NCBI GenBank assembly: GCA_049976425.1
Contig: JBMFIG010000035.1
Coordinates: 1-12,185 of the forward strand
Length of the DNA stretch: 12,185 nucleotides
Direction of reading: 5' to 3'
Source: Thermoproteus sp.
Lineage (GTDB): Archaea; Thermoproteota; Thermoprotei; Thermoproteales; Thermoproteaceae
The notes below the pieces were generated by a model. That model saw nothing but the letters and a program-made list of their open reading frames with translations. It did no database searches and had not been told where the DNA came from. How positions within the stretch are numbered: the stretch's first letter is position 1; each line of letters opens with the position of its first letter. This document shows, piece by piece, positions 1 through 12,185 of the stretch. Both the position numbers and the translations under genes were made by a program.

Positions 1-472
1 TTATCTGGCTGTTGGTCCCCACGTCGGGCGCCGGTATGTCCAGCTCCTCTCCTATAAGCGGCGCTATAGCCCTAACGTAGCCTCTCGAGAGCTCCTCCAA
101 CTCCCGAGGCGAAAGCCTCTTGGGATCCACCCTAACAGCCCCCTTAGCCCCTCCATAGGGTAACCCGGCCAAGCTGTTCTTCAAAGTCATGATAGTCGCC
201 AAAGCCATATCGTCGGCCAGAGACACCTCGGGGTGGAAACGGATACCTCCCTTGTAAGGCCCAAGCGCGTCGTTATGCTGAACTCTATACCCCTCGAAAA
301 ACACAACACCGCCCCCATCAACCCTAACCGGAATAGAAACCACCAGAACCCTCTTAGGCCTAGAAAGAAACTCGTAAAGCTCGATAGGGAAACCGCCGAG
401 CTCTATACTCCTTCGGAGGAGCTGGAGGGTATTGCCCAGGAAGGCGTTCATTTGAGTGACCGACAGCATCAT
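1..472 (-). CDS. gdhA: Glutamate dehydrogenase (Glu/Leu/Phe/Val dehydrogenase family), N-terminal 157 codons; runs off the window's left edge
   Basis: Manual translation of the - strand from ATG 472 (alternative ATG 469): [157 protein letters not shown]. Contains the GDH motifs [23 protein letters not shown] (catalytic Lys) and DIPAPDVGT. Absent from the ORF track because there is no stop in the window. Confidence 0.96.
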
Positions 473-489
473 GAGATCGATAGAGGATA

Positions 490-502
490 CTTATAAGCTT
501 TT
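490..502 (-). promoter_or_regulatory. Putative BRE/TATA promoter of gdhA (leaderless or near-leaderless)
   Basis: The - strand reads AAAAGCTTATAAG; TTATAA (496-491) lies 19-27 nt upstream of the ATGs at 472/469. Confidence 0.65.
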
Positions 503-508
503 ATTTAC

Positions 509-545
509 ATATATTCTATTTATCTCAATATAGAATATATTGAGA
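509..545. repeat. Two overlapping perfect inverted repeats upstream of the gdhA promoter (possible operator)
   Basis: ATATATTCTAT (509-519) / ATAGAATATAT (530-540), 11-bp arms; TCTCAATATA (523-532) / TATATTGAGA (536-545), 10-bp arms with a 3-nt spacer. Confidence 0.6.
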
Positions 546-691
546 GAAAACTGCCGCAATCTTTTCGGGAAGGTCGTCGTAACCGAATAACATGCATAAA
601 AGTATATATCATGAACCACCCTAGGCTCTGAATGTTTTAAATTTAACTGAGTTTTATTAATTAAAAACAACTTAAAAATAATTATAAATTT

Positions 692-1906
692 TTATTCTAT
701 TTTAATTGTTTTTGTTTCTTTGCCGAATAGATAGATAGATACGCCGGCCGTCAGCCAGGCCGCGGCGTAGGCCGCTAGTGCGGTAGAGAAGGTGAGGTAT
801 GTGGGCAGTAAAGGCCCTATTATCATGCCGACGCGCGCCATGGATCCGCTACTGCCCATGCCCGTGGCGCGGAGATCGGACGGGAACGACTCGGGCGTGT
901 AGGCGTATATGAGGCCCCAGGCGCCGAGGTTGAAGAAGTTCAGGGCGATGCCGGAGGCCAGTAGCCAACCGACGTTCGGCGCGGCGGCAAACGCGATGGC
1001 CGAGGCGGCGGATCCCAGGAAGAAGAGGAGCAGACTGGGCCTTCTGCCGATCCTCTCTATGAGGTACGCCGCTGTGAAGTAGCCGGGCAGTTGAGCCAGC
1101 GACATGATCAACGAGTACTCGAACGTGGCGACCAAGCCGAGGCCTCTCTTGGCTATCATGGTGGGGAGCCAGAGAAAGGCGCCGTAGTAGCCGAAGGCTA
1201 GAAGGAGCCAGGCCGCCCACAGCAACAACGTCTGCGATCTGTAGCCGGTCAAGAGCTCCCTCGCCGAGTGCCTCTCGACGCGGTCGAGCGTGACGCCGTA
1301 GGTCTGGGCTATGGCGTAGGCCCTCTGCGGATCTCTGAGGTACAGCCACAGCGGGGATTCGGGGACAGCCGATCTGAGGACCAAGACGTAGAGCGCGGTC
1401 AAGGAGAGGAGGGCCAGCGGTATCCTCCAGCCGAGGCGCGGGAAGGCGAAGTATGCGACGGCGGCCGCCAGAATTGAGCCGAGGGACCAGAAGCTCTCCA
1501 GCAAGACCACGTTCCTTCCTCTATACCTAGTCGGCGAGAGCTCGGACATCAACGAGGCGGCCACGGGGAGCTCTCCGCCGAGCCCAAGGCCCGTGAAGAA
1601 GCGTAGCAACGCCAGATCCGACGCCGATCCGGCCAACGCCGTCAGGCCGGTCCCCGCGCCGTAGATGGCCAACGTCGTCATGAAGACGGGCTTTCTGCCC
1701 CAGACGTCGGCCAGCCTCCCGAAGAGGAGCGCGCCGAGCAACATGCCCACGTTGTTCGCCAATATGACGAGGCCGGCCTCGCCTTTGCCGAGCCCCAGCT
1801 CGCCGGCCGCGGCGACTAGGATATAGGAGAGCAGTAGGACGTCCATGGCGTCGAACATCCAGCCTATGCCGGCCGAGGCCAACAACCTGACGCCCTTCCA
1901 GTCCAT
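692..1906 (-). CDS. MFS transporter, NiaP/YceI-like (niacin or aromatic-acid type), 404 aa
   Basis: Likely true start is ATG 1906 (MDWKGVRLLASAGIGWMFDAMDV). Motifs GWxFDAMD, GRLADVWGRK (motif A), RFFTGLGLGGE, PESP, IERIGRR, YTPESFP and ETK; about 12 hydrophobic segments. The ORF-track extension to 2269 is mostly intergenic or antisense sequence. Confidence 0.9.
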   Translation of the reverse strand: MDWKGVRLLASAGIGWMFDAMDVLLLSYILVAAAGELGLGKGEAGLVILANNVGMLLGALLFGRLADVWGRKPVFMTTLAIYGAGTGLTALAGSASDLALLRFFTGLGLGGELPVAASLMSELSPTRYRGRNVVLLESFWSLGSILAAAVAYFAFPRLGWRIPLALLSLTALYVLVLRSAVPESPLWLYLRDPQRAYAIAQTYGVTLDRVERHSARELLTGYRSQTLLLWAAWLLLAFGYYGAFLWLPTMIAKRGLGLVATFEYSLIMSLAQLPGYFTAAYLIERIGRRPSLLLFFLGSAASAIAFAAAPNVGWLLASGIALNFFNLGAWGLIYAYTPESFPSDLRATGMGSSGSMARVGMIIGPLLPTYLTFSTALAAYAAAWLTAGVSIYLFGKETKTIKIE

Positions 1907-2039
1907 ATACGGCGTTGTGCATGCCGGTAGTACATAGTTGTGTGCAACATTTACGCGGGGAGTGCCGTAGGCCGCCGCCGAGCGCCTCGACGCCGCGCAT
2001 GGGATACATATATTTTCAGCTGGGCGGCGCCTATATAGC

Positions 2040-2046
2040 TTAAATA
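2040..2046 (+). promoter_or_regulatory. Putative TATA box of the MHS-family transporter
   Basis: TTAAATA lies 26-20 nt upstream of ATG 2066. Confidence 0.55.
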
Positions 2047-2065
2047 TGGCCTGCTTCTCAACGTT

Positions 2066-3330
2066 ATGTCGCTCAGATTCGTGGTGGCCGCATCGACCGT
2101 AGGCACGTTGATAGAGTGGTACGACTTCTTCGCCTACGCTTCCCTCTCCCCCATCATCGCCTCCCTCTTCTTCCCCAAGGGGAACCCCGCCGCCGCGATT
2201 ATAGGAACCTGGCTCATCTTCGCGACGGGCTTTGTGGTGAGGCCTATCGGCGCCCTCGTGTTCGGCCACCTGGGCGATAGGATAGGCCGCAAGTCGACGT
2301 TCCTCGCTACGTTGATTCTAATGGGCCTATCGACTACCGGCATAGGCCTATTGCCCACATACGCGCAAGCCGGCCTCGCCGCGACGGCCCTCCTGGCGGC
2401 TCTCAGGATGGTCCAAGGAATAGCGCTCGGCGGAGAGTACGGCGGCGCGGTGACCTACGCGCTCGAGTACGCGCCCAGAGGCAGAAGGGCGTTCTACGTC
2501 GGCTTCATCTCGGCGACCCCCCGCTTGGGCTCGGCCTCTCGTCCCTAACTATAGTCCTATCCTCAATGCTCCTCACGGCTCAAGAGTTCGCCGCATGGGG
2601 CTGGAGAGTTCCCTTCCTACTGGCGCTGACGGTGTTGGGCGCCTATCTGCGCCTCAAACTCGCCGAGACTCCGCTGTTCAAGGCGCTGAAGGAGAAAGGC
2701 GCTATGTCCAAGATACCGGTAGTCGAGGCGTTCGCCAAGTATTGGAAGTGGATACTTGTGGGCATCGCCGTAGCGGCGGGTCACGCCGTCCTCGCCTACA
2801 CCTCCACGGCCTACATATTCACGTTCCTGACCCAAGTGCCTAAGTGGACCTCCGTCGAGGCCAACGCCATAGTCGGCACAGCCGCCATCTTACAACTGCC
2901 CCTCTACATCTTCGCGGCGTGGCTCGGCGACAGGTTGGGCAGAAGGCTCATATACGTGATAGGGCTCGTCGTAGGCATAGCGACCTACTACCCCATATAC
3001 CTCTTCCTCTCGTCGTCGAAGAACTTCGCCGTTGCCATCCTGGCCGTCTTCGTGTTGATAGGGGCCACGGCCTTCACCTTCAGCATATTGGGCACGGCGT
3101 TAGCCGAGCTCTTCCCCACGAGGGTGAGGTACACCGGGATGTCCATAGCGTTCAATATTGGCATAGGCTTCTTCGGCGGCTTCACTCCGTCCATAGTAGG
3201 GGCCATAGGCCTAGCCCTACACAACCCTCTAGCGGGCGTCGTGCTGTACACCTACGTGGTGGCCGCCGTCGCGCTCGCCGTAGCCCTACTCGCCCTGCCG
3301 GAGACCAAGAACGTCGACGTATCGGTCTGA
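2066..3330 (+). pseudogene. MFS transporter of the MHS (metabolite:H+ symporter, ProP/ShiA-like) family, interrupted by a 1-nt frameshift (pseudogene or sequencing error)
   Basis: ORF 2066-2548 has GTLIEWYDF, RPIGALVFGHLGDRIGRK, GLLPTY and RMVQGIALGGEYGGA. ORF 2566-3330 has WGWRVPF, LAETP, GDRLGRR, LAELFPTRVRYTG and LPETK. Adding one C to the C6 run at 2517-2522 gives a continuous frame ...SATPPLGLGLSSLTIVLSSMLLT... and one ~420-aa protein. Confidence 0.85.
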
Positions 3331-3427
3331 CGGCGTCGCGCATCCTGCGTATGCGACCGCGTTTTCCAGCCAGCGCGGGCCCTAACGGCGCGTCTGGCCG
3401 GCCAACGGCATCCGCGCCTGATCTAGC

Positions 3428-3434
3428 TTATTAA
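3428..3434 (+). promoter_or_regulatory. Putative TATA box for the box C/D sRNA
   Basis: (C)TTATTAA lies 27-21 nt upstream of the C box at 3455. Confidence 0.6.
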
Positions 3435-3452
3435 CTGGCGACTTCTATTCAC

Positions 3453-3507
3453 TGGTGATGCGGTGTGCCGCCTCCGAGCGGTGAGGTAATTCCTGTCGGG
3501 GCTGATG
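3453..3507 (+). ncRNA. Candidate box C/D 2'-O-methylation guide sRNA
   Basis: C box GTGATGC (3455-3461), 12-nt guide GGTGTGCCGCCT, D' box CCGA (3474-3477), 3-nt linker, C' box GTGAGGT (3481-3487), 14-nt guide AATTCCTGTCGGGG, D box CTGA (3502-3505). About 51 nt, intergenic, with a TATA box at the expected distance. Exact ends are estimated. Confidence 0.75.
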
Positions 3508-3536
3508 CCTATTTATTGAGGATGCATGATACCTCC

Positions 3537-3737
3537 GTGAAGCGGCCGTTGAGGTTCTACGACATAGCGGCCGGGAAGACGTTCGTCGCGGACCAGTACG
3601 AGGTGGTGGAGATCAAGTCGTCCAGAGGCGCGGTCCGCCTCGCCGTGGCCAGATCGCCCTATACCGGAAACGAGTGCTACAGCTTCGCCCCGAAGAGGCC
3701 CGAGATAAGATCGGCCACGTTGAACGGCTACCTATAG
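3537..3737 (+). CDS. CC1-family (crenarchaeal chromatin protein 1-like) small nucleic-acid-binding protein, divergent, 66 aa
   Basis: VKRPLRFYDIAAGKTFVADQYEVVEIKSSRGAVRLAVARSPYTG matches the recalled CC1 pattern LKFYD-x7-DQYEV-x6-RG-x4-AVAKSPYTG. The GTG start at 3537 is supported by TATTTATT at 3510-3517; ATG 3522 is an alternative. The ORF-track start at 3465 overlaps the sRNA and is unlikely. Confidence 0.8.
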   Translation: MKRPLRFYDIAAGKTFVADQYEVVEIKSSRGAVRLAVARSPYTGNECYSFAPKRPEIRSATLNGYL

Positions 3738-4282
3738 CTGTAGATCTCCGACTCCTTGAACCAATAGGCTATCTCCCGCCTCGCCTCCTCGGGACTGTCG
3801 CTGGCGTGTACGAGGTTGCGGATAGACCGCCTCTCCCTATTGGCCAGGTCGGGGCTGTCCGTGGAGAAGTCGCCCCTGATAGTCCCCGGCTCGGCCTTGT
3901 AGGGCAGGGTATTGCCCACGAGCTTCCTCACCACGCTCACGGCGTGGTTCCCCTCAACTACCATGAGGAGGATAGGCGCCTCGGTCATGTAGTCCACCAG
4001 CCACCCCTTCACCATCTTGCCTATCTCCACGGGGTCGTCCGTGCCCAGCTCGGCCTTGGGGTCGATCCCCATCTCCCTATAGCTGTTGAGCGTCTTGTTC
4101 CCCACGTTTCTGAGCCAAGCCTCGTCGCTGGGGTAGAAACCCGCCATCTGCTCGCGGGAGGCCCACACCATCTTGGCGGCGACTATCCTAAGCCCCGCCC
4201 TCTCGAGGCGGGATATTATCTCCCCGATAAGCCCCCTCTTGACGGCGTCCGGCTTGATTATGACCAACGTCCTCTCGATCAT
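3728..4282 (-). CDS. ndk: Nucleoside diphosphate kinase (long archaeal form)
   Basis: ERTLVIIKPDAVKRGLIGEIISRLE, PGTIRGDF and RNLVHASDS (phosphorylated His); 184 aa. Confidence 0.97.
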   Translation of the reverse strand: MIERTLVIIKPDAVKRGLIGEIISRLERAGLRIVAAKMVWASREQMAGFYPSDEAWLRNVGNKTLNSYREMGIDPKAELGTDDPVEIGKMVKGWLVDYMTEAPILLMVVEGNHAVSVVRKLVGNTLPYKAEPGTIRGDFSTDSPDLANRERRSIRNLVHASDSPEEARREIAYWFKESEIYSYR

Positions 4283-4301
4283 GGCCGGAGGAAAACCGGC
4301 C

Positions 4302-4309
4302 TTTTTAAA
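4302..4309 (-). promoter_or_regulatory. Putative TATA box of ndk (leaderless)
   Basis: The - strand reads TTTAAAAA, 27-20 nt upstream of ATG 4282. Confidence 0.65.
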
Positions 4310-4403
4310 GGTCGGCCCTCTACTGCCCGGGCCGGACTTACCGGGGCCGGCTCAAGTAGCTCCTGCGCATCCAGCTCAACTACAGGTGAGGTGCGTGGAC
4401 GGC

Positions 4404-5273
4404 TTACAATATCTCTATCTCTTGGCCTTCTCTATATACGGCCTTGCGCTCGACGACGTAGGTAAACGCGCTGGCCGAGCCGGCGATGCCGCCGATAAGC
4501 CCGCCGAGGAGCCCCCACAAGGTGAGATCCACGCCCTTGGCGGCCGAGATCCCCATGCCTATTGCCGTGCCCAAAACGACGGAGCCCGTCAAGATCGTGA
4601 TTGCGGCTGCCAGCGACGCCGCTCTCCCCCTCCGAGATATGGGATACTCCATGTAGATCACGTCCCCCTCGGCGGCGTCGACCACCGCGTTATACTCCTT
4701 CCCTCTGTATATGTACTTCAGTTTCCAGAAGGGGTAATACACGATGCCCTCGAAGGCGGTCCTATCGGTTACCGAGATCTTGAAGGCCGAGGCGTAGCTC
4801 CTGGCCTCCTTCTCGTAAGGCTTTGAGGCGGCGGCCCAAGCCGTCTCGGGATCCAGCTGGGGCTGGTGGAATACGGCGGTTCTCTCCAACGACGGCTTGA
4901 AGGGGATCCTCCAACGGGCCGGGAATCTGTAGTCCCTCGGTACGTAGAACGGCGGCTTCTCCACCGCAAGCGCCGTCGCATATGTGGCCAGCTCCTTAAG
5001 AGGCTCGAAATAGACATAGTAGAGGTAGAGCGGGAGGAAGTGGAGCTCCGCGTCGGCCGGCGAGGCCGTGCCTAGATCCCGCGGCGAGGCCCAAGGGCGG
5101 AAACCGAAGACCCTGTTGAAAGCGGCGGTCTTGTCGAGGCGCGGCTCGAAGAAGTAGACGGACTCGAAGATCTTCCCCTCCCTTAAGACAGTGCCGCAGT
5201 AGGGGCAGACCAGATACTGCGCGCCCTCCGGCGCCTCGTACTCGGCCCCGCAGTAGGGACAACGGACCCTCAT
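4404..5273 (-). CDS. Zinc-ribbon domain membrane protein of unknown function (paralog B), 289 aa
   Basis: True start is ATG 5273 (MRVRCPYCGAEYEAPEGAQYLVCPYCG), overlapping the upstream stop as ATGA. Two CxxC motifs, LHFLPLY and IVYYPFW..Y.Y.GKEY...VDA..G motifs, and two C-terminal Gly-rich hydrophobic helices. Confidence 0.85.
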   Translation of the reverse strand: MRVRCPYCGAEYEAPEGAQYLVCPYCGTVLREGKIFESVYFFEPRLDKTAAFNRVFGFRPWASPRDLGTASPADAELHFLPLYLYYVYFEPLKELATYATALAVEKPPFYVPRDYRFPARWRIPFKPSLERTAVFHQPQLDPETAWAAASKPYEKEARSYASAFKISVTDRTAFEGIVYYPFWKLKYIYRGKEYNAVVDAAEGDVIYMEYPISRRGRAASLAAAITILTGSVVLGTAIGMGISAAKGVDLTLWGLLGGLIGGIAGSASAFTYVVERKAVYREGQEIEIL

Positions 5274-6262
5274 TTCTTGACCTTGAAGGACGCGACCACG
5301 TTCTTGCCGATAGCCGCCGATATCCCCGCGCCGAAGAACAGAAAGACCGCTCCGACCAACGGGTTCTGCGGAAGCGCGATCCCGCCTATGCCTGCCAAGA
5401 TGCCGCTGGCCAGGACAGAGCCTACTATGGAGCGGAGTCTGCTGGATACTGTGATGGGCTCGAGGGCCGCGAGGAGCTCGCCGTCCCAGCCGGCGAAGGC
5501 CATGTGGTATTGGGCCTCGTCGACAGTGTAGGGGACTAGCCAAGCCGGGAGGTACGTCAGAGGCGAGAGGTCGAACTCGCCGACTTGGTAGTCGACGGTC
5601 TTGTCGAGCACGGCGGTCCTCGCCGAGTGGAGCCGGAGAGCCTTCAAGGCCCTCTCGCCCGCGTCCTTATCAACTCTGGCGAGCAAGTCGTCCACGGCAT
5701 CCCGCATGGCTATGCCCCTTGCCCTATCTCTGCCGAACTCGGCCGCCAGAAATGCCTTGGAGGTCCTGTAGCCCAGCTCTATCTGGTCCAGCGGCTTGGT
5801 CTGCGGCTTGGTGGATAGGTAGTGCTGGGCCAGCTTCTCGGTAGCTATGCCGGCGACGGCCCTCCTAGCCAGCACGGGGATGGTCGTCGAGTAGTTGAGG
5901 GATCCCGCCACGTCGACCGTCCTGGTCACAGTGGTTTTGCCGGAGCTGTAGGTCACCCTAACCCGTGCCCTATAGCTTGCCGCCATCTCCACCGATGCGA
6001 AGTAGTAGGGCAGATAGTATAGGTCGGGGTCGCCGAAGGTCGCCGACTTCAGCTTGAGCTCCTTACGCGCCGCCGCCACGGCCCTCCTAGCTATCTCGTC
6101 GCTGTTCAGAGTAGGCACCGCCGATATGCCGCCGGTATCGACGCCGGAGACTACCAGGTTGGGCCTACCGCAGTACTGGCAGACGACCAGGACGGAATCC
6201 GGCGTGACGTCCAGCGGCGCGCCGCAGTAGGAGCACCTGAACTCCCTACCCCCCGACGACAT
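5270..6262 (-). CDS. Zinc-ribbon domain membrane protein of unknown function (paralog A), 330 aa
   Basis: N-terminal CSYCG-x13-CQYCG, LYYLPYY and LTYLPAW...Y......Y....AGWDG motifs, and two C-terminal Gly-rich hydrophobic helices. Confidence 0.85.
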   Translation of the reverse strand: MSSGGREFRCSYCGAPLDVTPDSVLVVCQYCGRPNLVVSGVDTGGISAVPTLNSDEIARRAVAAARKELKLKSATFGDPDLYYLPYYFASVEMAASYRARVRVTYSSGKTTVTRTVDVAGSLNYSTTIPVLARRAVAGIATEKLAQHYLSTKPQTKPLDQIELGYRTSKAFLAAEFGRDRARGIAMRDAVDDLLARVDKDAGERALKALRLHSARTAVLDKTVDYQVGEFDLSPLTYLPAWLVPYTVDEAQYHMAFAGWDGELLAALEPITVSSRLRSIVGSVLASGILAGIGGIALPQNPLVGAVFLFFGAGISAAIGKNVVASFKVKK

Positions 6263-6351
6263 GGCCGGACGAGGAGAAGAGCCCTAGCGAGGCGGTGCCG
6301 TAGGCTGACGCACGCATGCTCGCGGCATACATAGTATCTATAACATGGACG

Positions 6352-6359
6352 TTTAAATA
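6352..6359 (-). promoter_or_regulatory. Putative TATA box for the zinc-ribbon gene pair
   Basis: The - strand reads GAACTATTTAAAC; it predicts a start site near 6332, about 70 nt before ATG 6262. Confidence 0.5.
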
Positions 6360-6407
6360 GTTCGCCACCGCTGTAGCTCGTTTTAGATAAAGCTGTAGGT
6401 TTTCAAA

Positions 6408-7667
6408 TTAGGGTATGAGCGCGGCCAGTAGCAGAGGCGCGGCGACGCCGAGGACCACCGCGAGCGTCGAGGTGAGCACCGAAGTGGCGTTGTCGGCGCT
6501 GGGGCCAGCCGCCTCAACGATCTGCCTAAAGATCCGCAGATAGTAGGGGGTCGCCAGAGCGCTGTTGAGTATCACGAGGACCGCGACGCCGACTTGGCCT
6601 AAGGCCAGCGATAGGAGTATGAGCAGTAGCTTGGGCCAGAAGCCGAGGAGAGGCGGCAGGCCGAGCAGAGACAATACGTTGATGGTGTTCGACAGGACGC
6701 GCCTCTCCGGGACCGTGTCGGCGTGCTTGACGGTGAGCGCGCCGAATATGCCCGCCTTGCCGAGGCCCGAGGTCAGACCCTCCAGCATGATCACTAGCGA
6801 GGCCACGGAAAACGCCGACATGTTGCCCACGAGAGGCAATGAGACGAACCTGTTGCCGAAGTAGAACACCAGCGCGGCGGCGGCCACGGCGTAGGACATA
6901 TGCGCGATGGAGGAATACGCCAAGGTGCGGCCGAAGGTCCTCGCCGTGAGGCCGGCCACGTTGGCGAAGGTCATGGAGGCAAGCGCCGCGATGAGAAGGG
7001 CGAACGCGGCTGGCTTGGCCATGGGGACGACGTTGAGGAGAGTCAGCAGGACCAACAACGGCGTCAGCTCGCCGAATATGGTCAACGCGGCGACGCCTCT
7101 AGGCGTGGACAGGGCGAACGCGTCTACCATCCAGAGGTGGGCCGGCACGAGGCCCAGCTCGAAGATGAAGCCTATTGCGAGCACGACCCAGCCGAGGGTA
7201 GGCGATACGTAGAGGGCGAGGGGGAAGCCGAGCATCATCAAGGTCTTGCCCACGGCCGAGAATATGAGGTACTTGAGAGCCCCCTCCACGTTCTCCCTCT
7301 CGCGGCCCGACGCGAGCAGGCCGTATATGCTGGTCGTCGACACCGCCAGCGCGGCCAGCCCCGCGAAGGCGTAGTAGACCGCCTGTTGAGGCGCCGCTAC
7401 GACCCTATAGTAGGCGTAGGCCGCCAGGGCCGTGGACGTGGCCGAGAGGCCCAAGGCGAACCCCAGCCCCCCGTAAGGCCAATCCAGGGCGAAGGCTATG
7501 GCCACCACGCCGAGTAGCGTGAAGAAGAACGCGGCCTCGGGCACGAAGAAGGCCATGGCGAACACAGCTATCCCCATGGCGGCCGCGAGGTAGCGCCCGT
7601 CCACCTTAAGCGCGAGGGGCGCAAGCGCGGCGAAGGCCAACACGACGAGGAAGAACGGGTCGATCAT
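6408..7667 (-). CDS. nuoN: Complex I-like antiporter subunit N (NuoN), divergent
   Basis: EGALKYLIF, LVPAHLWMVDA, RTLAYSSIAH and SLLGLPPLLGFWPK motifs; highly hydrophobic; last gene of the operon. Confidence 0.85.
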   Translation of the reverse strand: MIDPFFLVVLAFAALAPLALKVDGRYLAAAMGIAVFAMAFFVPEAAFFFTLLGVVAIAFALDWPYGGLGFALGLSATSTALAAYAYYRVVAAPQQAVYYAFAGLAALAVSTTSIYGLLASGRERENVEGALKYLIFSAVGKTLMMLGFPLALYVSPTLGWVVLAIGFIFELGLVPAHLWMVDAFALSTPRGVAALTIFGELTPLLVLLTLLNVVPMAKPAAFALLIAALASMTFANVAGLTARTFGRTLAYSSIAHMSYAVAAAALVFYFGNRFVSLPLVGNMSAFSVASLVIMLEGLTSGLGKAGIFGALTVKHADTVPERRVLSNTINVLSLLGLPPLLGFWPKLLLILLSLALGQVGVAVLVILNSALATPYYLRIFRQIVEAAGPSADNATSVLTSTLAVVLGVAAPLLLAALIP

Positions 7668-9553
7668 AGCAACACCAACAAGACCAGCACTAGGAGGCCG
7701 GCGATGGCGTATAGGAGATACCAGCTGAGGCTCCCGGTCTGCAGACGCCTAAACGCGGCGGACATCCTGCCGAAGGCCCAGGGAAGCGCCGCGTGGTAGA
7801 GGTTGTCTATCACGCCGCGGTCGACGACCCAGTAGATCAGGTGGGCCAAGTGGTGGTATATCCACACGAGGACCCCGTCGTAGAGCCACGGCAGGTAGAA
7901 CCTCCTATAGCCTATCCTCCAAAGCGGGGTCAAGGCCCTGGACCTCACGCCTGGCCTCAAGACGTAGAGCGCCAGCGCTACGGCGAAGCCCGCGAGGAAT
8001 GCGAAGAAGCCGGGGGACGCGACCAGCTTCGCGACCTCGTCGGCGTAGAGGTACGCGAAGTAGCCGCCGACTCCCAACGCGGCCAGGGCCAGGACGGTGT
8101 AGGGGACCCACATGATGGGGTGCGCCTCGTGGACGTGTTCCTTAGGCTCGGGGCCGTGGACCAGCGAAAGGCCGAGGAGCCTCAGCCCGTAGAGAGGGGC
8201 GAGGAACGCTATGAGGCCGGCCACCAAGACGCCTGAGAACCCCACGGCGTCGAAGCCCGCCGATATGTTGTCGACTGCCATCTCCTTAGTGAAGAACCCG
8301 GCGAACGGCGGCGTGCCGATCAGCGAGAGCATGGCCAGCCAAAGCGCCAGGGACGTCACCCTCATGTAGTTGCCGAGCCTGCCGACGGCGCCGAGGTATT
8401 TAGTGCCGGTCTCGTGGATCACAGCGCCGTATCCCATGAAGAGAGGCGCCTTGGAGATCGCGTGCCCCACGATTTGCATGAAGGCGATCCACAACAAGGC
8501 CGTAAGCGCCGCTCCGCTCCCCACGAGACCTGCGCCTCCCGCCGCGGCGGCTATAATGCCCAGATTAGCCGCGGTGGAGCCCGCCAGAACGAGCTTGAAC
8601 TCGTCCACCGTCAGCGCTATTATCGAGGAGAGGATTGCGGTCAACGCGCCGAATACAAGAACGGCGAGGAAATACGTCTGTGCCCCCTGCACAGACGCGA
8701 ATATCGGCGCCGTGACTATGAGCAGGTAGACGCCGGCGTTTACCATAGTCGCCGCGTGTATCAACGCCGAGACGCTCGTCGGGCCTGTCATCGCGGTCAG
8801 CAACCACTCGGTGAACGGGAACTGGGCCGACTTCGTCAAGGGGCCCATCAAGAAGAGGAACAACGGAAGCAGGCCGAGCGCCGAGATCGCGGGCCCTAGC
8901 CTGAGCAAGCCGGAGAGCTGGACGGTGCCGACGGCGGCGAAGATGTAGGCGAGCGACACAAGGAAGGCCGAGTCGCCGGTCCTAATCGTGAGGATTGCGC
9001 GGAGGCCCGCCTTCGAGGGAGGCCAGGCGTAGTCGACGAGCGCGACGCGGTCGCCCGGATGGCCCACCCACTTCACGTCCGGCTCGTCGTCTTTATACCA
9101 ATGTCCGATAAGGGCCCAGGACGCGAGGCCTACGCCTTCCCACCCGACGAGGAGGAACCAGAGGTTGTCGGCGTATGTGATTATGAGCATCGACGTGGCG
9201 AAGAAGCCCATGAAGAACCAGTACCAGCCCGGCCTGTAGTCGCCCTCCATGTACTTCACGCTGTAGAGCACTATGAAGAAGACCAGCCAGGCTACGAGCA
9301 TGCCCATCACTCCGCTGAACTGGTCCAGGTGGAGCGAGATGTAGATCCCTAGCTGGGGTATCCAGGGCACCGAGTACGTCTCGGTGTAGATGCCCGAGAC
9401 TGGCGGCGTGTAGGCCAGGATGGAGAAGACCGCCGACAGGAAGGCGCCTGCGACCACGAGCCAGGCCTTGGCCTTCTCTCCGGGCAGGAAGAGGCTGAGG
9501 ATAGACGCTACCAGAGGCAGGAATACCGTGAGGAATACGTACTCGGGGCTCAT
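7664..9553 (-). CDS. nuoL: Complex I-like antiporter subunit L (NuoL)
   Basis: YSVKYM, GWEGVGLASWALIG, KSAQFPFTEWLLTAMTGPTSVSALIHAATMVNAGVYL, GFFTKE, and C-terminal RRLQTGSLSWY after the lateral helix; 629 aa. Confidence 0.93.
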   Translation of the reverse strand: MSPEYVFLTVFLPLVASILSLFLPGEKAKAWLVVAGAFLSAVFSILAYTPPVSGIYTETYSVPWIPQLGIYISLHLDQFSGVMGMLVAWLVFFIVLYSVKYMEGDYRPGWYWFFMGFFATSMLIITYADNLWFLLVGWEGVGLASWALIGHWYKDDEPDVKWVGHPGDRVALVDYAWPPSKAGLRAILTIRTGDSAFLVSLAYIFAAVGTVQLSGLLRLGPAISALGLLPLFLFLMGPLTKSAQFPFTEWLLTAMTGPTSVSALIHAATMVNAGVYLLIVTAPIFASVQGAQTYFLAVLVFGALTAILSSIIALTVDEFKLVLAGSTAANLGIIAAAAGGAGLVGSGAALTALLWIAFMQIVGHAISKAPLFMGYGAVIHETGTKYLGAVGRLGNYMRVTSLALWLAMLSLIGTPPFAGFFTKEMAVDNISAGFDAVGFSGVLVAGLIAFLAPLYGLRLLGLSLVHGPEPKEHVHEAHPIMWVPYTVLALAALGVGGYFAYLYADEVAKLVASPGFFAFLAGFAVALALYVLRPGVRSRALTPLWRIGYRRFYLPWLYDGVLVWIYHHLAHLIYWVVDRGVIDNLYHAALPWAFGRMSAAFRRLQTGSLSWYLLYAIAGLLVLVLLVLL

Positions 9554-11010
9554 AGGCTAACCGGGACGAGGTGGTTTTGTACGTATACGCTTATGTTAGT
9601 CCAGAGACTCGACGACATCGGCGGGAGGAACAGTAGCACGGAGAGGAGCGCGGTGGCCACTATCGCAACTAGGGCGGCGTCGTACGGGCCCGCGCCGCTT
9701 ACCTTGGGCGGCCCGAAGAAGACGTTCTTGATTGTGGTGAACGCGTAGATGCCCGTCACGACGAGCATCGCGGCGAAGGCTATATATAACTCTATATACT
9801 CTACACCGAGATAGGTCTTGACCAGCGCCACCGCGAGGGTTATCTCGGATATCATGCCTATTGTGAGTATGCCGGCCAAGTTCAAGAAGCCCACTATGGC
9901 GGCTCCCGCGAGGGCCGAGTTCCAGCCGTATAGGCCGCCCATCCTGTCCACGTCGCGGGTGTGGAGGTGCATGATGAAGTAGCCGGCGGTCATGAAGAGG
10001 ACGGCCTTGCCCAGGCCGTGGCTGATGTATATCAACGCGGCGGCGGTGAGGCCGAAGACGTTGTGGAGAGAGAGGGCGAGGAGCATATAGCCCATCTGGC
10101 TCACGGTCGAGTAGGCGAAGAGCCTCTTGATGTCGCTCTGGACGTAGGCCATCATGCCCCCATATATGGCGGTGGCTATGCCGTACCACGTGAGGGCGGG
10201 GAACCAGCTCTGCGGCGTTATGGGAAGCGCCACGACCGATATAATATATCCGCCGAAGCCGACGAGCACGGGCGACAGAAGGGCCGACAGCGGCGTCGGG
10301 GCTTCTGCGTGCACGTAGGGTAGCCACATGTGGACGCCGAGAGCGGCCATCTTGATGAAGGAGCCCAGCAGGATCAGCAGAGTTGCGAGGTAGAGAAGCG
10401 TCTTGGGGAGAGCTCCGGCGGCTGTGGCGGGCACCGGGACCGAGGTGACTCCGTGGAGGTACAGCACTATGAAGCCCGCCAACATGAGGAGCGCCGCTAC
10501 GTGGGACCAGACCAGGTACATTACGGTGATCCTCGCCCTATCGCCGTAGCCGTAGTACAGCACCTGGAAGAGGGAGGCTATCAGCGCGACCTCGATGAAG
10601 ATGTAGATGCCGAAGAGGTTCTGCGCCGCGAACGCGCCGGCCAGGCCGCCGAGGAAGAAGCCGTAGGTGAGGTAGAATATGGTGTTCCTGACGCCGAGCT
10701 CCTCGGCCCTATGCTCCATGTAGGGCGCCGAGAATATGGCGACCATTATGCCGACGAGGGCCACGGTGAAGACGTAGGCGGCGTTGTAGGGCTCGAGATA
10801 CAGCGCGAAGATAGACCAGAGGCCCGTTCCGACCGAGGCCACGTACCTCGATCCGCCGAATAGGGAGAAGGACGATAGGGCCAGCAACGGCAACAACGCG
10901 ACAGCGCTTATGTAGGCCGCCGTCTGCGTGGACCGCCTGGCGGCCGCGTACGCCGCCAGCGAGAGGGCCATGGGCAACAGTATCGAGGCGTAGAGCGCGA
11001 GGCCGGTCAT
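9550..11010 (-). CDS. nuoM: Complex I-like antiporter subunit M (NuoM)
   Basis: YIFIE, IKMA..GVHMWLPYVHAEAPTP, DIKRLFAYSTVSQMG, ISHGLGK, HTRDVDRMGGL and GMISE (TM12 Glu, typical of NuoM); 486 aa. Confidence 0.88.
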   Translation of the reverse strand: MTGLALYASILLPMALSLAAYAAARRSTQTAAYISAVALLPLLALSSFSLFGGSRYVASVGTGLWSIFALYLEPYNAAYVFTVALVGIMVAIFSAPYMEHRAEELGVRNTIFYLTYGFFLGGLAGAFAAQNLFGIYIFIEVALIASLFQVLYYGYGDRARITVMYLVWSHVAALLMLAGFIVLYLHGVTSVPVPATAAGALPKTLLYLATLLILLGSFIKMAALGVHMWLPYVHAEAPTPLSALLSPVLVGFGGYIISVVALPITPQSWFPALTWYGIATAIYGGMMAYVQSDIKRLFAYSTVSQMGYMLLALSLHNVFGLTAAALIYISHGLGKAVLFMTAGYFIMHLHTRDVDRMGGLYGWNSALAGAAIVGFLNLAGILTIGMISEITLAVALVKTYLGVEYIELYIAFAAMLVVTGIYAFTTIKNVFFGPPKVSGAGPYDAALVAIVATALLSVLLFLPPMSSSLWTNISVYVQNHLVPVSL

Positions 11011-11303
11011 GGCCTATCTCTGCCCGATCTGAACTCCTCCAGGTCTGTGGTCTTGGCGGCCGCGTATGCCCTATATATCACCGCTCCTATAATGGCCACC
11101 TCGCCGGCGGCCATGGATATGAGCAACACCAACGCCCAGAGGCCTACGGAGGGCGCGGCCGATAGGACCGGCGCGAGGGCGGCGAGAGCCCCCACGACTA
11201 CCACCTCGATCGCGATGAGGAGGCGCACCATGTTCCTGCTCGCCGCAAGGCCGTAGAGCCCCACGGCGATCAGCACGAGCCCGATGGCGATTGCGGCGAT
11301 CAT
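11007..11303 (-). CDS. nuoK: Complex I subunit K (NuoK), 98 aa
   Basis: True start is ATG 11303 (MIAAIAIGLVLIAVGLYGLAASRNMVRLLIAIE...MAAGEVAIIGA). Three TM helices with both conserved Glu; ATGA overlaps on both sides. Confidence 0.9.
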   Translation of the reverse strand: MIAAIAIGLVLIAVGLYGLAASRNMVRLLIAIEVVVVGALAALAPVLSAAPSVGLWALVLLISMAAGEVAIIGAVIYRAYAAAKTTDLEEFRSGRDRP

Positions 11304-11728
11304 ACCCTCTTCGCGACCTCTATGGCCACCACTAGCGACGAGACCAGGAGGGCCGCTATTAGGGCGAGGAGGTCGAAGTTGGGCTGTAGCTCCTGGCCCA
11401 TCTGGGGCGGCGGCGCTTGCGGGATCAAGGCCCACAACAGCAGGGCGGCGGCGACGGCGAGGACGGCCACGGCTATCTTGTACCGGCGCGGGTATTCGAA
11501 GAAGCCGCCGTACATCGAGGCGGTGACTATCACCATGAGTATGACCGAGCCTATATAGACGACGAAGACCAAGAAGGACGCCACCACGAGCCCCATCAAG
11601 GCGTAGTATGCGGCCACCGTGGCGGCCGAGAACGCCAGGCTCAGGGCGGCCACGGCGTTGTCCTTGACCAAAACCGCGAGGATGCCGAAGATTAGGGCAA
11701 CCGCCAGAATCAGATATTCCAGGAACAT
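11300..11728 (-). CDS. nuoJ: Complex I subunit J (NuoJ), 142 aa
   Basis: Five hydrophobic helices and a VYIGSVILMVI motif (NuoJ VYxGA-like); directly upstream of nuoK. Confidence 0.85.
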   Translation of the reverse strand: MFLEYLILAVALIFGILAVLVKDNAVAALSLAFSAATVAAYYALMGLVVASFLVFVVYIGSVILMVIVTASMYGGFFEYPRRYKIAVAVLAVAAALLLWALIPQAPPPQMGQELQPNFDLLALIAALLVSSLVVAIEVAKRV

Positions 11729-11749
11729 GTAGGGCGTGGAATAACACCC

Positions 11750-11759
11750 TTTTAAATAA
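11750..11759 (-). promoter_or_regulatory. Putative TATA box of the nuoJKMLN operon (leaderless)
   Basis: The - strand reads TTATTTAAAA; TTTAAAA lies 28-22 nt upstream of ATG 11728. Confidence 0.65.
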
Positions 11760-11830
11760 TTCTTGAGTCGAGTGCAAAAAAGAGTTAACTCGCCCCCAGG
11801 ATCTGCGACCGACGCGGCTCCTACCGGCGA

Positions 11831-12185
11831 TTAGCCCGTCGACAGCCCTCTCCTCAGCTCCTCCAGCGCCTTTTCTAGCTCATCGCTCCACTTGACTCTC
11901 CCCCTCAAGGCCTCTGCCCTCTCGGCGAGTTCTCTCAAGAGCAGAACCACGTCTCTCGCCGCCTCTCCCCTATCCCTATACTTCGAGAGAGCCATGTCGG
12001 GGTCCGGGCCGTGGTACTGGTAGTCGTGGAGGTCGAGGGCCTTGTCTGTCCACGCCGCGATGCCCGCATGGCCGGCCTCCTCAAGCATCTGCGACAGCGC
12101 CTTCATACGGCTAGTGGGCACTCTAGGCACCGCGGTCGACTCAAGCCAACGCCTGTCCTCGTCGCTTCTGGCCAAAGCCTTCAGC
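11831..12185 (-). CDS. PaREP1-like family protein, C-terminal part (5' end outside the window)
   Basis: The frame is open to the window edge (LKALARSDEDRRWLE...). VPTSRMKALSQMLEE and ALDLHDYQYHGPDPD...SKY...EAARD resemble the Thermoproteales PaREP1 paralog family as recalled. Helical and charged. Confidence 0.65.
   Translation of the reverse strand, partial: LKALARSDEDRRWLESTAVPRVPTSRMKALSQMLEEAGHAGIAAWTDKALDLHDYQYHGPDPDMALSKYRDRGEAARDVVLLLRELAERAEALRGRVKWSDELEKALEELRRGLSTG

Follow-up and report, generated by a model that had tools for sequence, protein, structure and literature searches.

Which gene, if any, lies in the short stretch between a transporter gene and a small open reading frame (ORF) of a Thermoproteus sp. 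contig, and at which nucleotide its product would act, is the question raised by the locus described here. The stretch belongs to a DNA of 12,185 nucleotides (NCBI GenBank assembly GCA_049976425.1, contig JBMFIG010000035.1, positions 1 to 12,185, forward strand), to which we will refer as "the window". An initial annotation, prepared from the letters of the DNA, had proposed at 3428–3507 a box C/D guide sRNA hidden from ORF lists, with a D' guide that may target 23S rRNA just after the P-loop. The analysis presented below leads us to consider it very probable that positions 3455–3505 of the plus strand are a box C/D sRNA gene, orthologous to the published sR128/sR122 guide RNAs and with a predicted D' target at the equivalent of Escherichia coli G2255.

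Layout of the gene

Archaeal box C/D sRNAs have a total length of about 50–60 nt, guide spacers of about 10–14 nt, and a short loop between D' and C'. By reading the window and cutting it at the boxes, the following elements were obtained, and every coordinate of the C-D'-C'-D layout, of its 12- and 14-nt guides and of the TATA-like element given by the initial annotation proved accurate:

3428–3434 (+), TATA-like element TTATTAA, read from the sequence, with a putative promoter role
3455–3461 (+), C box GTGATGC, six of seven positions as in RUGAUGA, the final position being variable among family members
3462–3473 (+), D' guide GGTGTGCCGCCT, 12 nt; predicted target 23S rRNA GGGCGGCACACC, N+5 base C3469
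3474–3477 (+), D' box CCGA, a variant of CUGA
3478–3480 (+), loop GCG, 3 nt, between D' and C'
3481–3487 (+), C' box GTGAGGT
3488–3501 (+), D guide AATTCCTGTCGGGG, 14 nt; tentative target 23S rRNA CCCCGACGGGG, N+5 base C3497
3502–3505 (+), D box CTGA, four of four positions as in the consensus

From box C to box D the unit spans 51 nt (3455–3505, plus strand), and both guide lengths (12 and 14 nt) fit the range of the class. The layout was written as a regular expression (RTGATGN, 10–13 nt, YYGA, 2–8 nt, RTGANNN, 10–14 nt, CTGA), which matched once in the window when both strands were searched; 500 resamples of it under a first-order Markov model gave no match. Over the whole 1.84-Mb assembly (G000) it matched 11 times, with no match in any of five resampled genomes. 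The ten additional matches are located on contigs C1, C3, C7 (two), C9, C13 (two), C17, C18 and C27, the two of C7 lying about 400 nt apart (minus-strand positions 37961 and 38371); judged by their layout, they are likely to be other unannotated C/D sRNA genes.

A comparison with Rfam had been proposed as a check of the annotation. No family reached its gathering score anywhere in the window; resemblance to the class is nevertheless apparent in a permissive scan of 3300–3600, where six of the seven matches are CD-box families on the plus strand, starting at 3451, 3454 or 3471 and ending at 3506 or 3507. The best of them, sR32 (RF01119), reached 18.3 bits (E 0.0075), its gathering score being 40, and it is the sole Rfam match with E≤1 across the whole window. 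The generic C/D'/C'/D layout of sR32, sR11, sR9, sR28, sR23 and sR35 aligns end to end with the gene, but scores are 11.9–18.3 bits against gathering scores of 36–60 and the guides are unrelated; the sRNA is a member of none of these families. Regarding structure, a significant canonical fold was not found (minimum free energy z-score −0.02), and a K-turn RNA whose guides are open would not be expected to show one. A scan for bacterial-type promoters and terminators found nothing, this type of scan being inapplicable to archaea.

Occurrence among relatives

The 341 nt around the gene were used as a query against 41 genomes. Matches were obtained in 21 of them. Many correspond to paralogous copies of the small ORF downstream, and another group of matches aligns only to query positions 50/56–106, which correspond to 3455–3505 of the window, that is, exactly from C box to D box. 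In an alignment of 13 copies (A1), 31 columns are invariant, and all of them fall in the guides and the box cores, whereas the 5-nt flanks diverge and have nothing in common. Within the C box, T7, G8, A9 and G11 are conserved in at least 90% of the copies; CTGA of the D box is invariant (13/13), and the D' box reads CCGA in all seven copies of the genus-level group g1 except for G002 (CTGA). A sequence-only profile (R1) was built from A1 and run over 62 genomes of the order, 21 of which matched: the window's own genome, seven of the eight others of its genus (g1), 12 of the 18 of the sister genus (g3) and one of the 31 of family f2, the latter with a partial match comprising C box and D' guide. 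The profile gave no match in g2 (0/2), in family f3 (0/2), or in G004, a genome of the same genus that is 99% complete. The initial annotation had named boxes that are not conserved in relatives as evidence against an sRNA; what is seen is boxes and guides conserved among the relatives, with diverging flanks around them, and matches in 21 of the 62 genomes.

Nineteen of these 21 homologs could be parsed into boxes and guides. The two left out are a sister-genus copy (G012) in which the C box is clearly lost, and G045, which falls outside the expression; the core GTGCCGC is still seen by eye in both. Within the 45 nt that precede the C box, the 8-mer richest in A/T has its centre 21–25 nt before that box in 15 of the 19 parsed homologs, and 22 nt before it here. 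TTATTAA may accordingly be regarded as a putative promoter element of the sRNA gene.

Relation to published guide RNAs

As far as its letters and predicted target tell, the gene is already known in kind: it is an ortholog of Pyrobaculum sR128 and of Thermoproteus tenax TtesR122. Table S1 of Lui et al. (2018, NAR, PMC6009581) contains sR128 members from PAR, PCA, PIS, PNE and POG, and the published C boxes include GUGAUGU, GUGAUGG and GUGAGGA. According to Table S4 of the same work, the D' guide is predicted to direct modification of 23S G2370 (HC) in all five members, and the D guide that of 23S G2172 in Par, Pca and Pog (scores 20, 17 and 20), the entry for the D guide of Pne and Pis, which differs, being "No rRNA Prediction" (PMC6009581). 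In G010 and G019 the corresponding target positions are 2374 and 2176, a constant offset of 4 with respect to 2370 and 2172 that probably derives from a different 5' end of the rRNA model.

The window gene and Pyrobaculum sR128 agree in architecture, in the core of the D' guide (GUGUGCCGC) and in the D' target predicted for them. Furthermore, 13 of the 14 bases of the Par/Pog D guide are identical to those of the window (Par/Pog/Tte type CAUUCCUGUCGGGG), and the sequences published as PARsR128 and POGsR128 recur in the copies L014 and L015. On the other hand, sR128 belongs to another genus, its D' and C' boxes are CUGA and GUGAUGU instead of CCGA and GUGAGGU, the C box of the window ends in C, and the genomic neighbourhood is different. 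The second relative, TtesR122, is listed in additional file 1 of Dennis et al. (2015, BMC Genomics, PMC4644070), where the last column of its row holds the figure 29445, presumably a read count. Its letters equal those of the copy of G002 (L024), within g1, and both of its guides are the same as those of the window apart from the outermost bases; its boxes differ (C UUGAUGA, D' CUGA, C' GUGACGU) and, unlike the window gene, it does not adjoin the small ORF. In additional file 2 of that work, the labels P128 and T22 stand within the alignment block of E. coli 2240–2330 (PMC4644070).

Synteny does not unite these copies: the small ORF is the neighbour in seven g1 genomes (G000, G007, G008, G003, G005, G006 and G001), and in G002 and the sister genus the sRNA is located elsewhere, without that ORF. 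Since families were grouped by guides and targets as well as by synteny (Lui et al., 2018, PMC6009581), the lack of synteny is compatible with membership. The description of the gene as "hidden" is thus apt for Rfam and for ORF callers, the family being absent from Rfam, but not for the literature, in which the family is in print as sR128/TtesR122 with the same predicted D' target.

Predicted targets of the two guides

Searches for LSU and SSU rRNA found neither 23S nor 16S rRNA in the assembly; targets were therefore inferred from five relatives with complete genomes. For the class, one guide at least should match rRNA or tRNA over 8 bp or more, with a Watson-Crick pair at N+5; the initial annotation had asked for guide complements of at least 9–10 nt in host RNAs, and on the rRNAs of these relatives the D' guide exceeds both lengths: GGTGTGCCGCCT pairs at 12 of 12 positions (11 Watson-Crick and one G-U) with the sense-strand 23S rRNA segment GGGCGGCACACC in all five, with a C:G pair at the N+5 base and a duplex energy of −25.2 kcal/mol. 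Among sites in which N+5 is paired, the runner-up has 10 pairs, three or four of them G-U. When guides of identical composition were generated by shuffling, 10 of 1000 matched 16S plus 23S rRNA equally well, and the match may be described as good, not overwhelming, for a GC-rich guide on a GC-rich rRNA. E. coli numbering was transferred by a MAFFT alignment of the 23S rRNAs of the relatives with the annotated E. coli 23S. The N+5 target aligns to E. coli G2255, within CUGGGGCGG, two bases 3' of the P-loop G2253, so that the G "near 2255" proposed by the initial annotation agrees with the aligned position. In helix 80, positions 2251 and 2252 are the P-loop contacts of the CCA end of peptidyl-tRNA (PMC4644070). 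A limited literature search found no experimental mapping of a 2'-O-methyl group at the G2255 equivalent. Elsewhere, a D'-guide match with one mismatch overlaps a predicted tRNA-Asp at its end: it begins 4 nt short of that end and continues beyond the tRNA.

Positions 3–11 of the D' guide are Watson-Crick to the GGGCGGCACACC target in all 19 parsed homologs, variation being confined to positions 1, 2 and 12. Besides these, the locus L064 of G045 (C107:7234–7265, minus strand), in another family of the order, reads ATGATGA, AGTGTGCCGCAG and CTGA in this order, a C/D-like unit with the D' guide core of the window gene and an unrelated second half. Its letters suggest that the site after the P-loop may be targeted beyond the two genera.

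The D guide had been left unplaced by the initial annotation, as an orphan or as a guide toward tRNA or mRNA. An imperfect site can be offered for it, so it is not necessarily an orphan: AATTCCTGTCGGGG forms 11 contiguous pairs (nine Watson-Crick, two G-U) with 23S CCCCGACGGGG in the five relatives, with the N+5 target aligning to E. coli G2048, which is the site predicted as 23S G2172 for sR128 (PMC6009581). An equally good match was obtained with 117 of 1000 shuffled guides, which is not significant on its own, and we consider the assignment of the D guide to the G2048 equivalent about evenly balanced. Other candidates were discarded. A 12/12 match (CCCCGGCAGGAA) seen in rRNA loci was rejected as a target, since it falls on the strand opposite to 23S. 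A genome-wide search for 12-nt complements with at most one mismatch and one G-U gave many scattered matches, as expected in a GC-rich genome; the only perfect complement besides the gene's own antisense (C9, minus strand, 41356) was rejected as an mRNA target, since it lies opposite a coding region and the letters resembling the guide are on the sense strand of that region. Inspection by eye found no D-guide match inside the 43 tRNAs predicted by ARAGORN in intron mode, many of which look spurious.

The D-guide site lies about 200 nt upstream of the D' site (positions ~2180 and ~2380 in the 23S rRNA of G007), and this proximity gives some room to a different reading, in which the sRNP would mainly be an rRNA folding chaperone whose guides tether domain V segments ~200 nt apart, methylation being secondary or absent at one of the sites. 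That both candidate targets fall in the same 23S region, and that the D duplex includes two G-U pairs, would agree with such a role; but the D site is indistinguishable from chance in the shuffling just described, and the D guide is different in G014, G015 and G021, as it is in Pne and Pis (PMC6009581), whereas the D' guide is fixed. Since the D' guide is fixed and the D guide varies, the conserved function would be that of the D' site alone. Mainly acting as a chaperone is thus possible but rather unlikely for this RNP, and such a role would in any case be compatible with methylation, which we continue to favour.

Boxes that deviate from the consensus

Three of the four boxes of the gene are off consensus (C GTGATGC, D' CCGA, C' GTGAGGT), and the initial annotation had stressed their deviation. 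The class needs the GA dinucleotides of the C and D boxes to form tandem sheared G-A pairs, and canonical C'/D' boxes have a U-U at the fifth base of C' and the second of D'. GA dinucleotides are intact in all four boxes of the window gene, where they would form the sheared pairs. As read from the sequence, G at position 5 of C' and C at position 2 of D' are able to pair here. This G5:C2 pairing occurs in G000, G007, G008, G003 and G005; a strict C'/D' covariation, with G5:C2 replacing U-U, was rejected, as C-C, C-U, G-U and A-G are found in other copies.

Taken by themselves, such boxes might be those of a decaying, non-functional sRNA relic, and the sister-genus copy that has lost its C box (G012) points in the same direction. 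However, the variant boxes are letter-identical in G007 and G008, which equal the window over 62 nt although their flanks differ (with the wider 341-nt query, G008 has an identity of only 86%, over query 24–341), and the GA dinucleotides persist in each box. Moreover, CCGA is the D' box in 8 of the 11 layout matches of the assembly, the present gene included, when these are parsed by eye, and a box variation larger than that of Pyrococcus has been reported as normal in Pyrobaculum (Lui et al., 2018, PMC6009581). From the last two observations it follows that the non-consensus boxes are normal for the lineage: the C box indeed ends without the final A and D' and C' are non-consensus, but the deviation is ordinary where the gene is found. 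We regard decay as very improbable and the unit as a probably functional sRNA gene.

The downstream small gene and the surroundings

The ORF list contains a GTG-started frame, 3465..3737, that covers most of the sRNA and masks it, as the initial annotation had noticed. Downstream of the D box, the following features were distinguished:

3510–3517 (+), TATA-like element TATTTATT of the downstream small gene, with 4 nt between the D box and the element
3537–3737 (+), 66-aa ORF, real start GTG 3537, with a conserved N-terminus

A/T-rich boxes occur at the same place in six syntenic relatives, the gap after the D box being 4–5 nt, and the distance from the end of the D box to the GTG is 28–32 nt in the seven syntenic genomes. 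In all seven, the protein N-terminus, (V/M)(K/R)RPLRFYD, begins at the equivalent of GTG 3537; upstream of this GTG, in-frame stops occur at just 18 nt in G005 and 48 nt in G008. Because of this conserved N-terminus and of these stops, the extension of the frame to 3465 is best read as an artefact of ORF listing. Although the frame is open from GTG 3465 here and over 75–78 nt upstream of the conserved GTG in five of the seven syntenic genomes, there is next to no likelihood that the unit is coding sequence or a 5' leader of 3465..3737 carrying coincidental boxes, against which stand, besides the start at 3537 and the stops of G005 and G008, the TATA-like box between the D box and the GTG, the presence of the 51-nt unit away from the small ORF in G002 and the sister genus, and a layout not expected by chance (0/500 resamples).

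Placement of the sRNA apart from the small ORF in G002 and the sister genus also argues that it is an independent gene. Given the tight and conserved abutment of both genes in the other genomes, a functional coupling has been considered. If they were coupled, read-through from the sRNA promoter might feed a leaderless mRNA, TBP/TFB on the downstream promoter might define the 3' end of the sRNA, or the small gene might be modulated by an sRNP that assembles while the RNA is still nascent. We take coupling to be improbable, and a compact arrangement that was simply inherited explains the abutment equally well. The 66-aa protein (MKRPLRFYDIAAGK...) has no family match in Pfam or NCBIfam. Its gene has DNA-level paralogs in the same assembly (C46:7168–7285, C25:15263–15391 and C7:40738–40855) and also in most relatives of the family.

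Upstream of the sRNA, the neighbour is an MFS transporter on the plus strand, which ends at 3330. Two ORFs in different frames, 2066–2548 and 2566–3330 (+), both match MFS/sugar-transporter profiles, the former covering positions 4–142 of the 452 of Sugar_tr and the latter matching MFS_1; they look like one transporter gene split by a frameshift, the result of either pseudogene formation or faulty assembly. On the minus strand, 692–2269 is occupied by a divergent MFS gene. Downstream, the intron mode of ARAGORN proposes a tRNA-Ile with a 1527-nt intron at 3892–5503, a span that covers an NDK gene and a TFIIB-ribbon gene; this prediction is almost certainly spurious, the default run finding no tRNA in the window.

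Proposed mode of action

The genome encodes the protein partners that such an RNA would require, with fibrillarin (348 bits) next to Nop5 (251 bits), and two genes of the L7Ae family. By analogy with the class and with the published homologs, the gene would be transcribed, assembled into an RNP and used for methylation in the present organism. The product would be an independently transcribed sRNA of ~51–57 nt, in which the C and D boxes would form a kink-turn and D' and C' a K-loop; L7Ae would bind both and recruit Nop5 and fibrillarin. The D' guide would pair with the part of helix 80 of 23S rRNA that immediately follows the P-loop on its 3' side, and fibrillarin would 2'-O-methylate the G opposite the fifth guide base upstream of D', equivalent to E. 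coli G2255. On its part, the D guide would probably form a weaker duplex some 200 nt upstream, where domain V begins, with N+5 at the G2048 equivalent, and the RNP may also keep together, while the rRNA folds, two neighbouring segments around the peptidyl-transferase centre. Regarding expression, two metatranscriptome runs with small shares gave one contig each (2999 and 299 nt, with 13 differences), which are contigs of a relative; the 299-nt contig is preceded by adapter-like letters, and the loose end of contig X1 matches the upstream context of G008.

Significance

For the published guide-RNA family, the gene adds one more ortholog and opens no new question. From the point of view of annotation, Rfam-based procedures miss such genes (no match at gathering score), and ORF callers can swallow them by extending a neighbouring frame. 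As for the biology of these hyperthermophiles, a D' guide that is fixed in the 19 parsed copies, together with the core GTGCCGC kept in the two unparsed ones, is an argument that contact with the nucleotide following the P-loop, or its methylation, is a conserved requirement.
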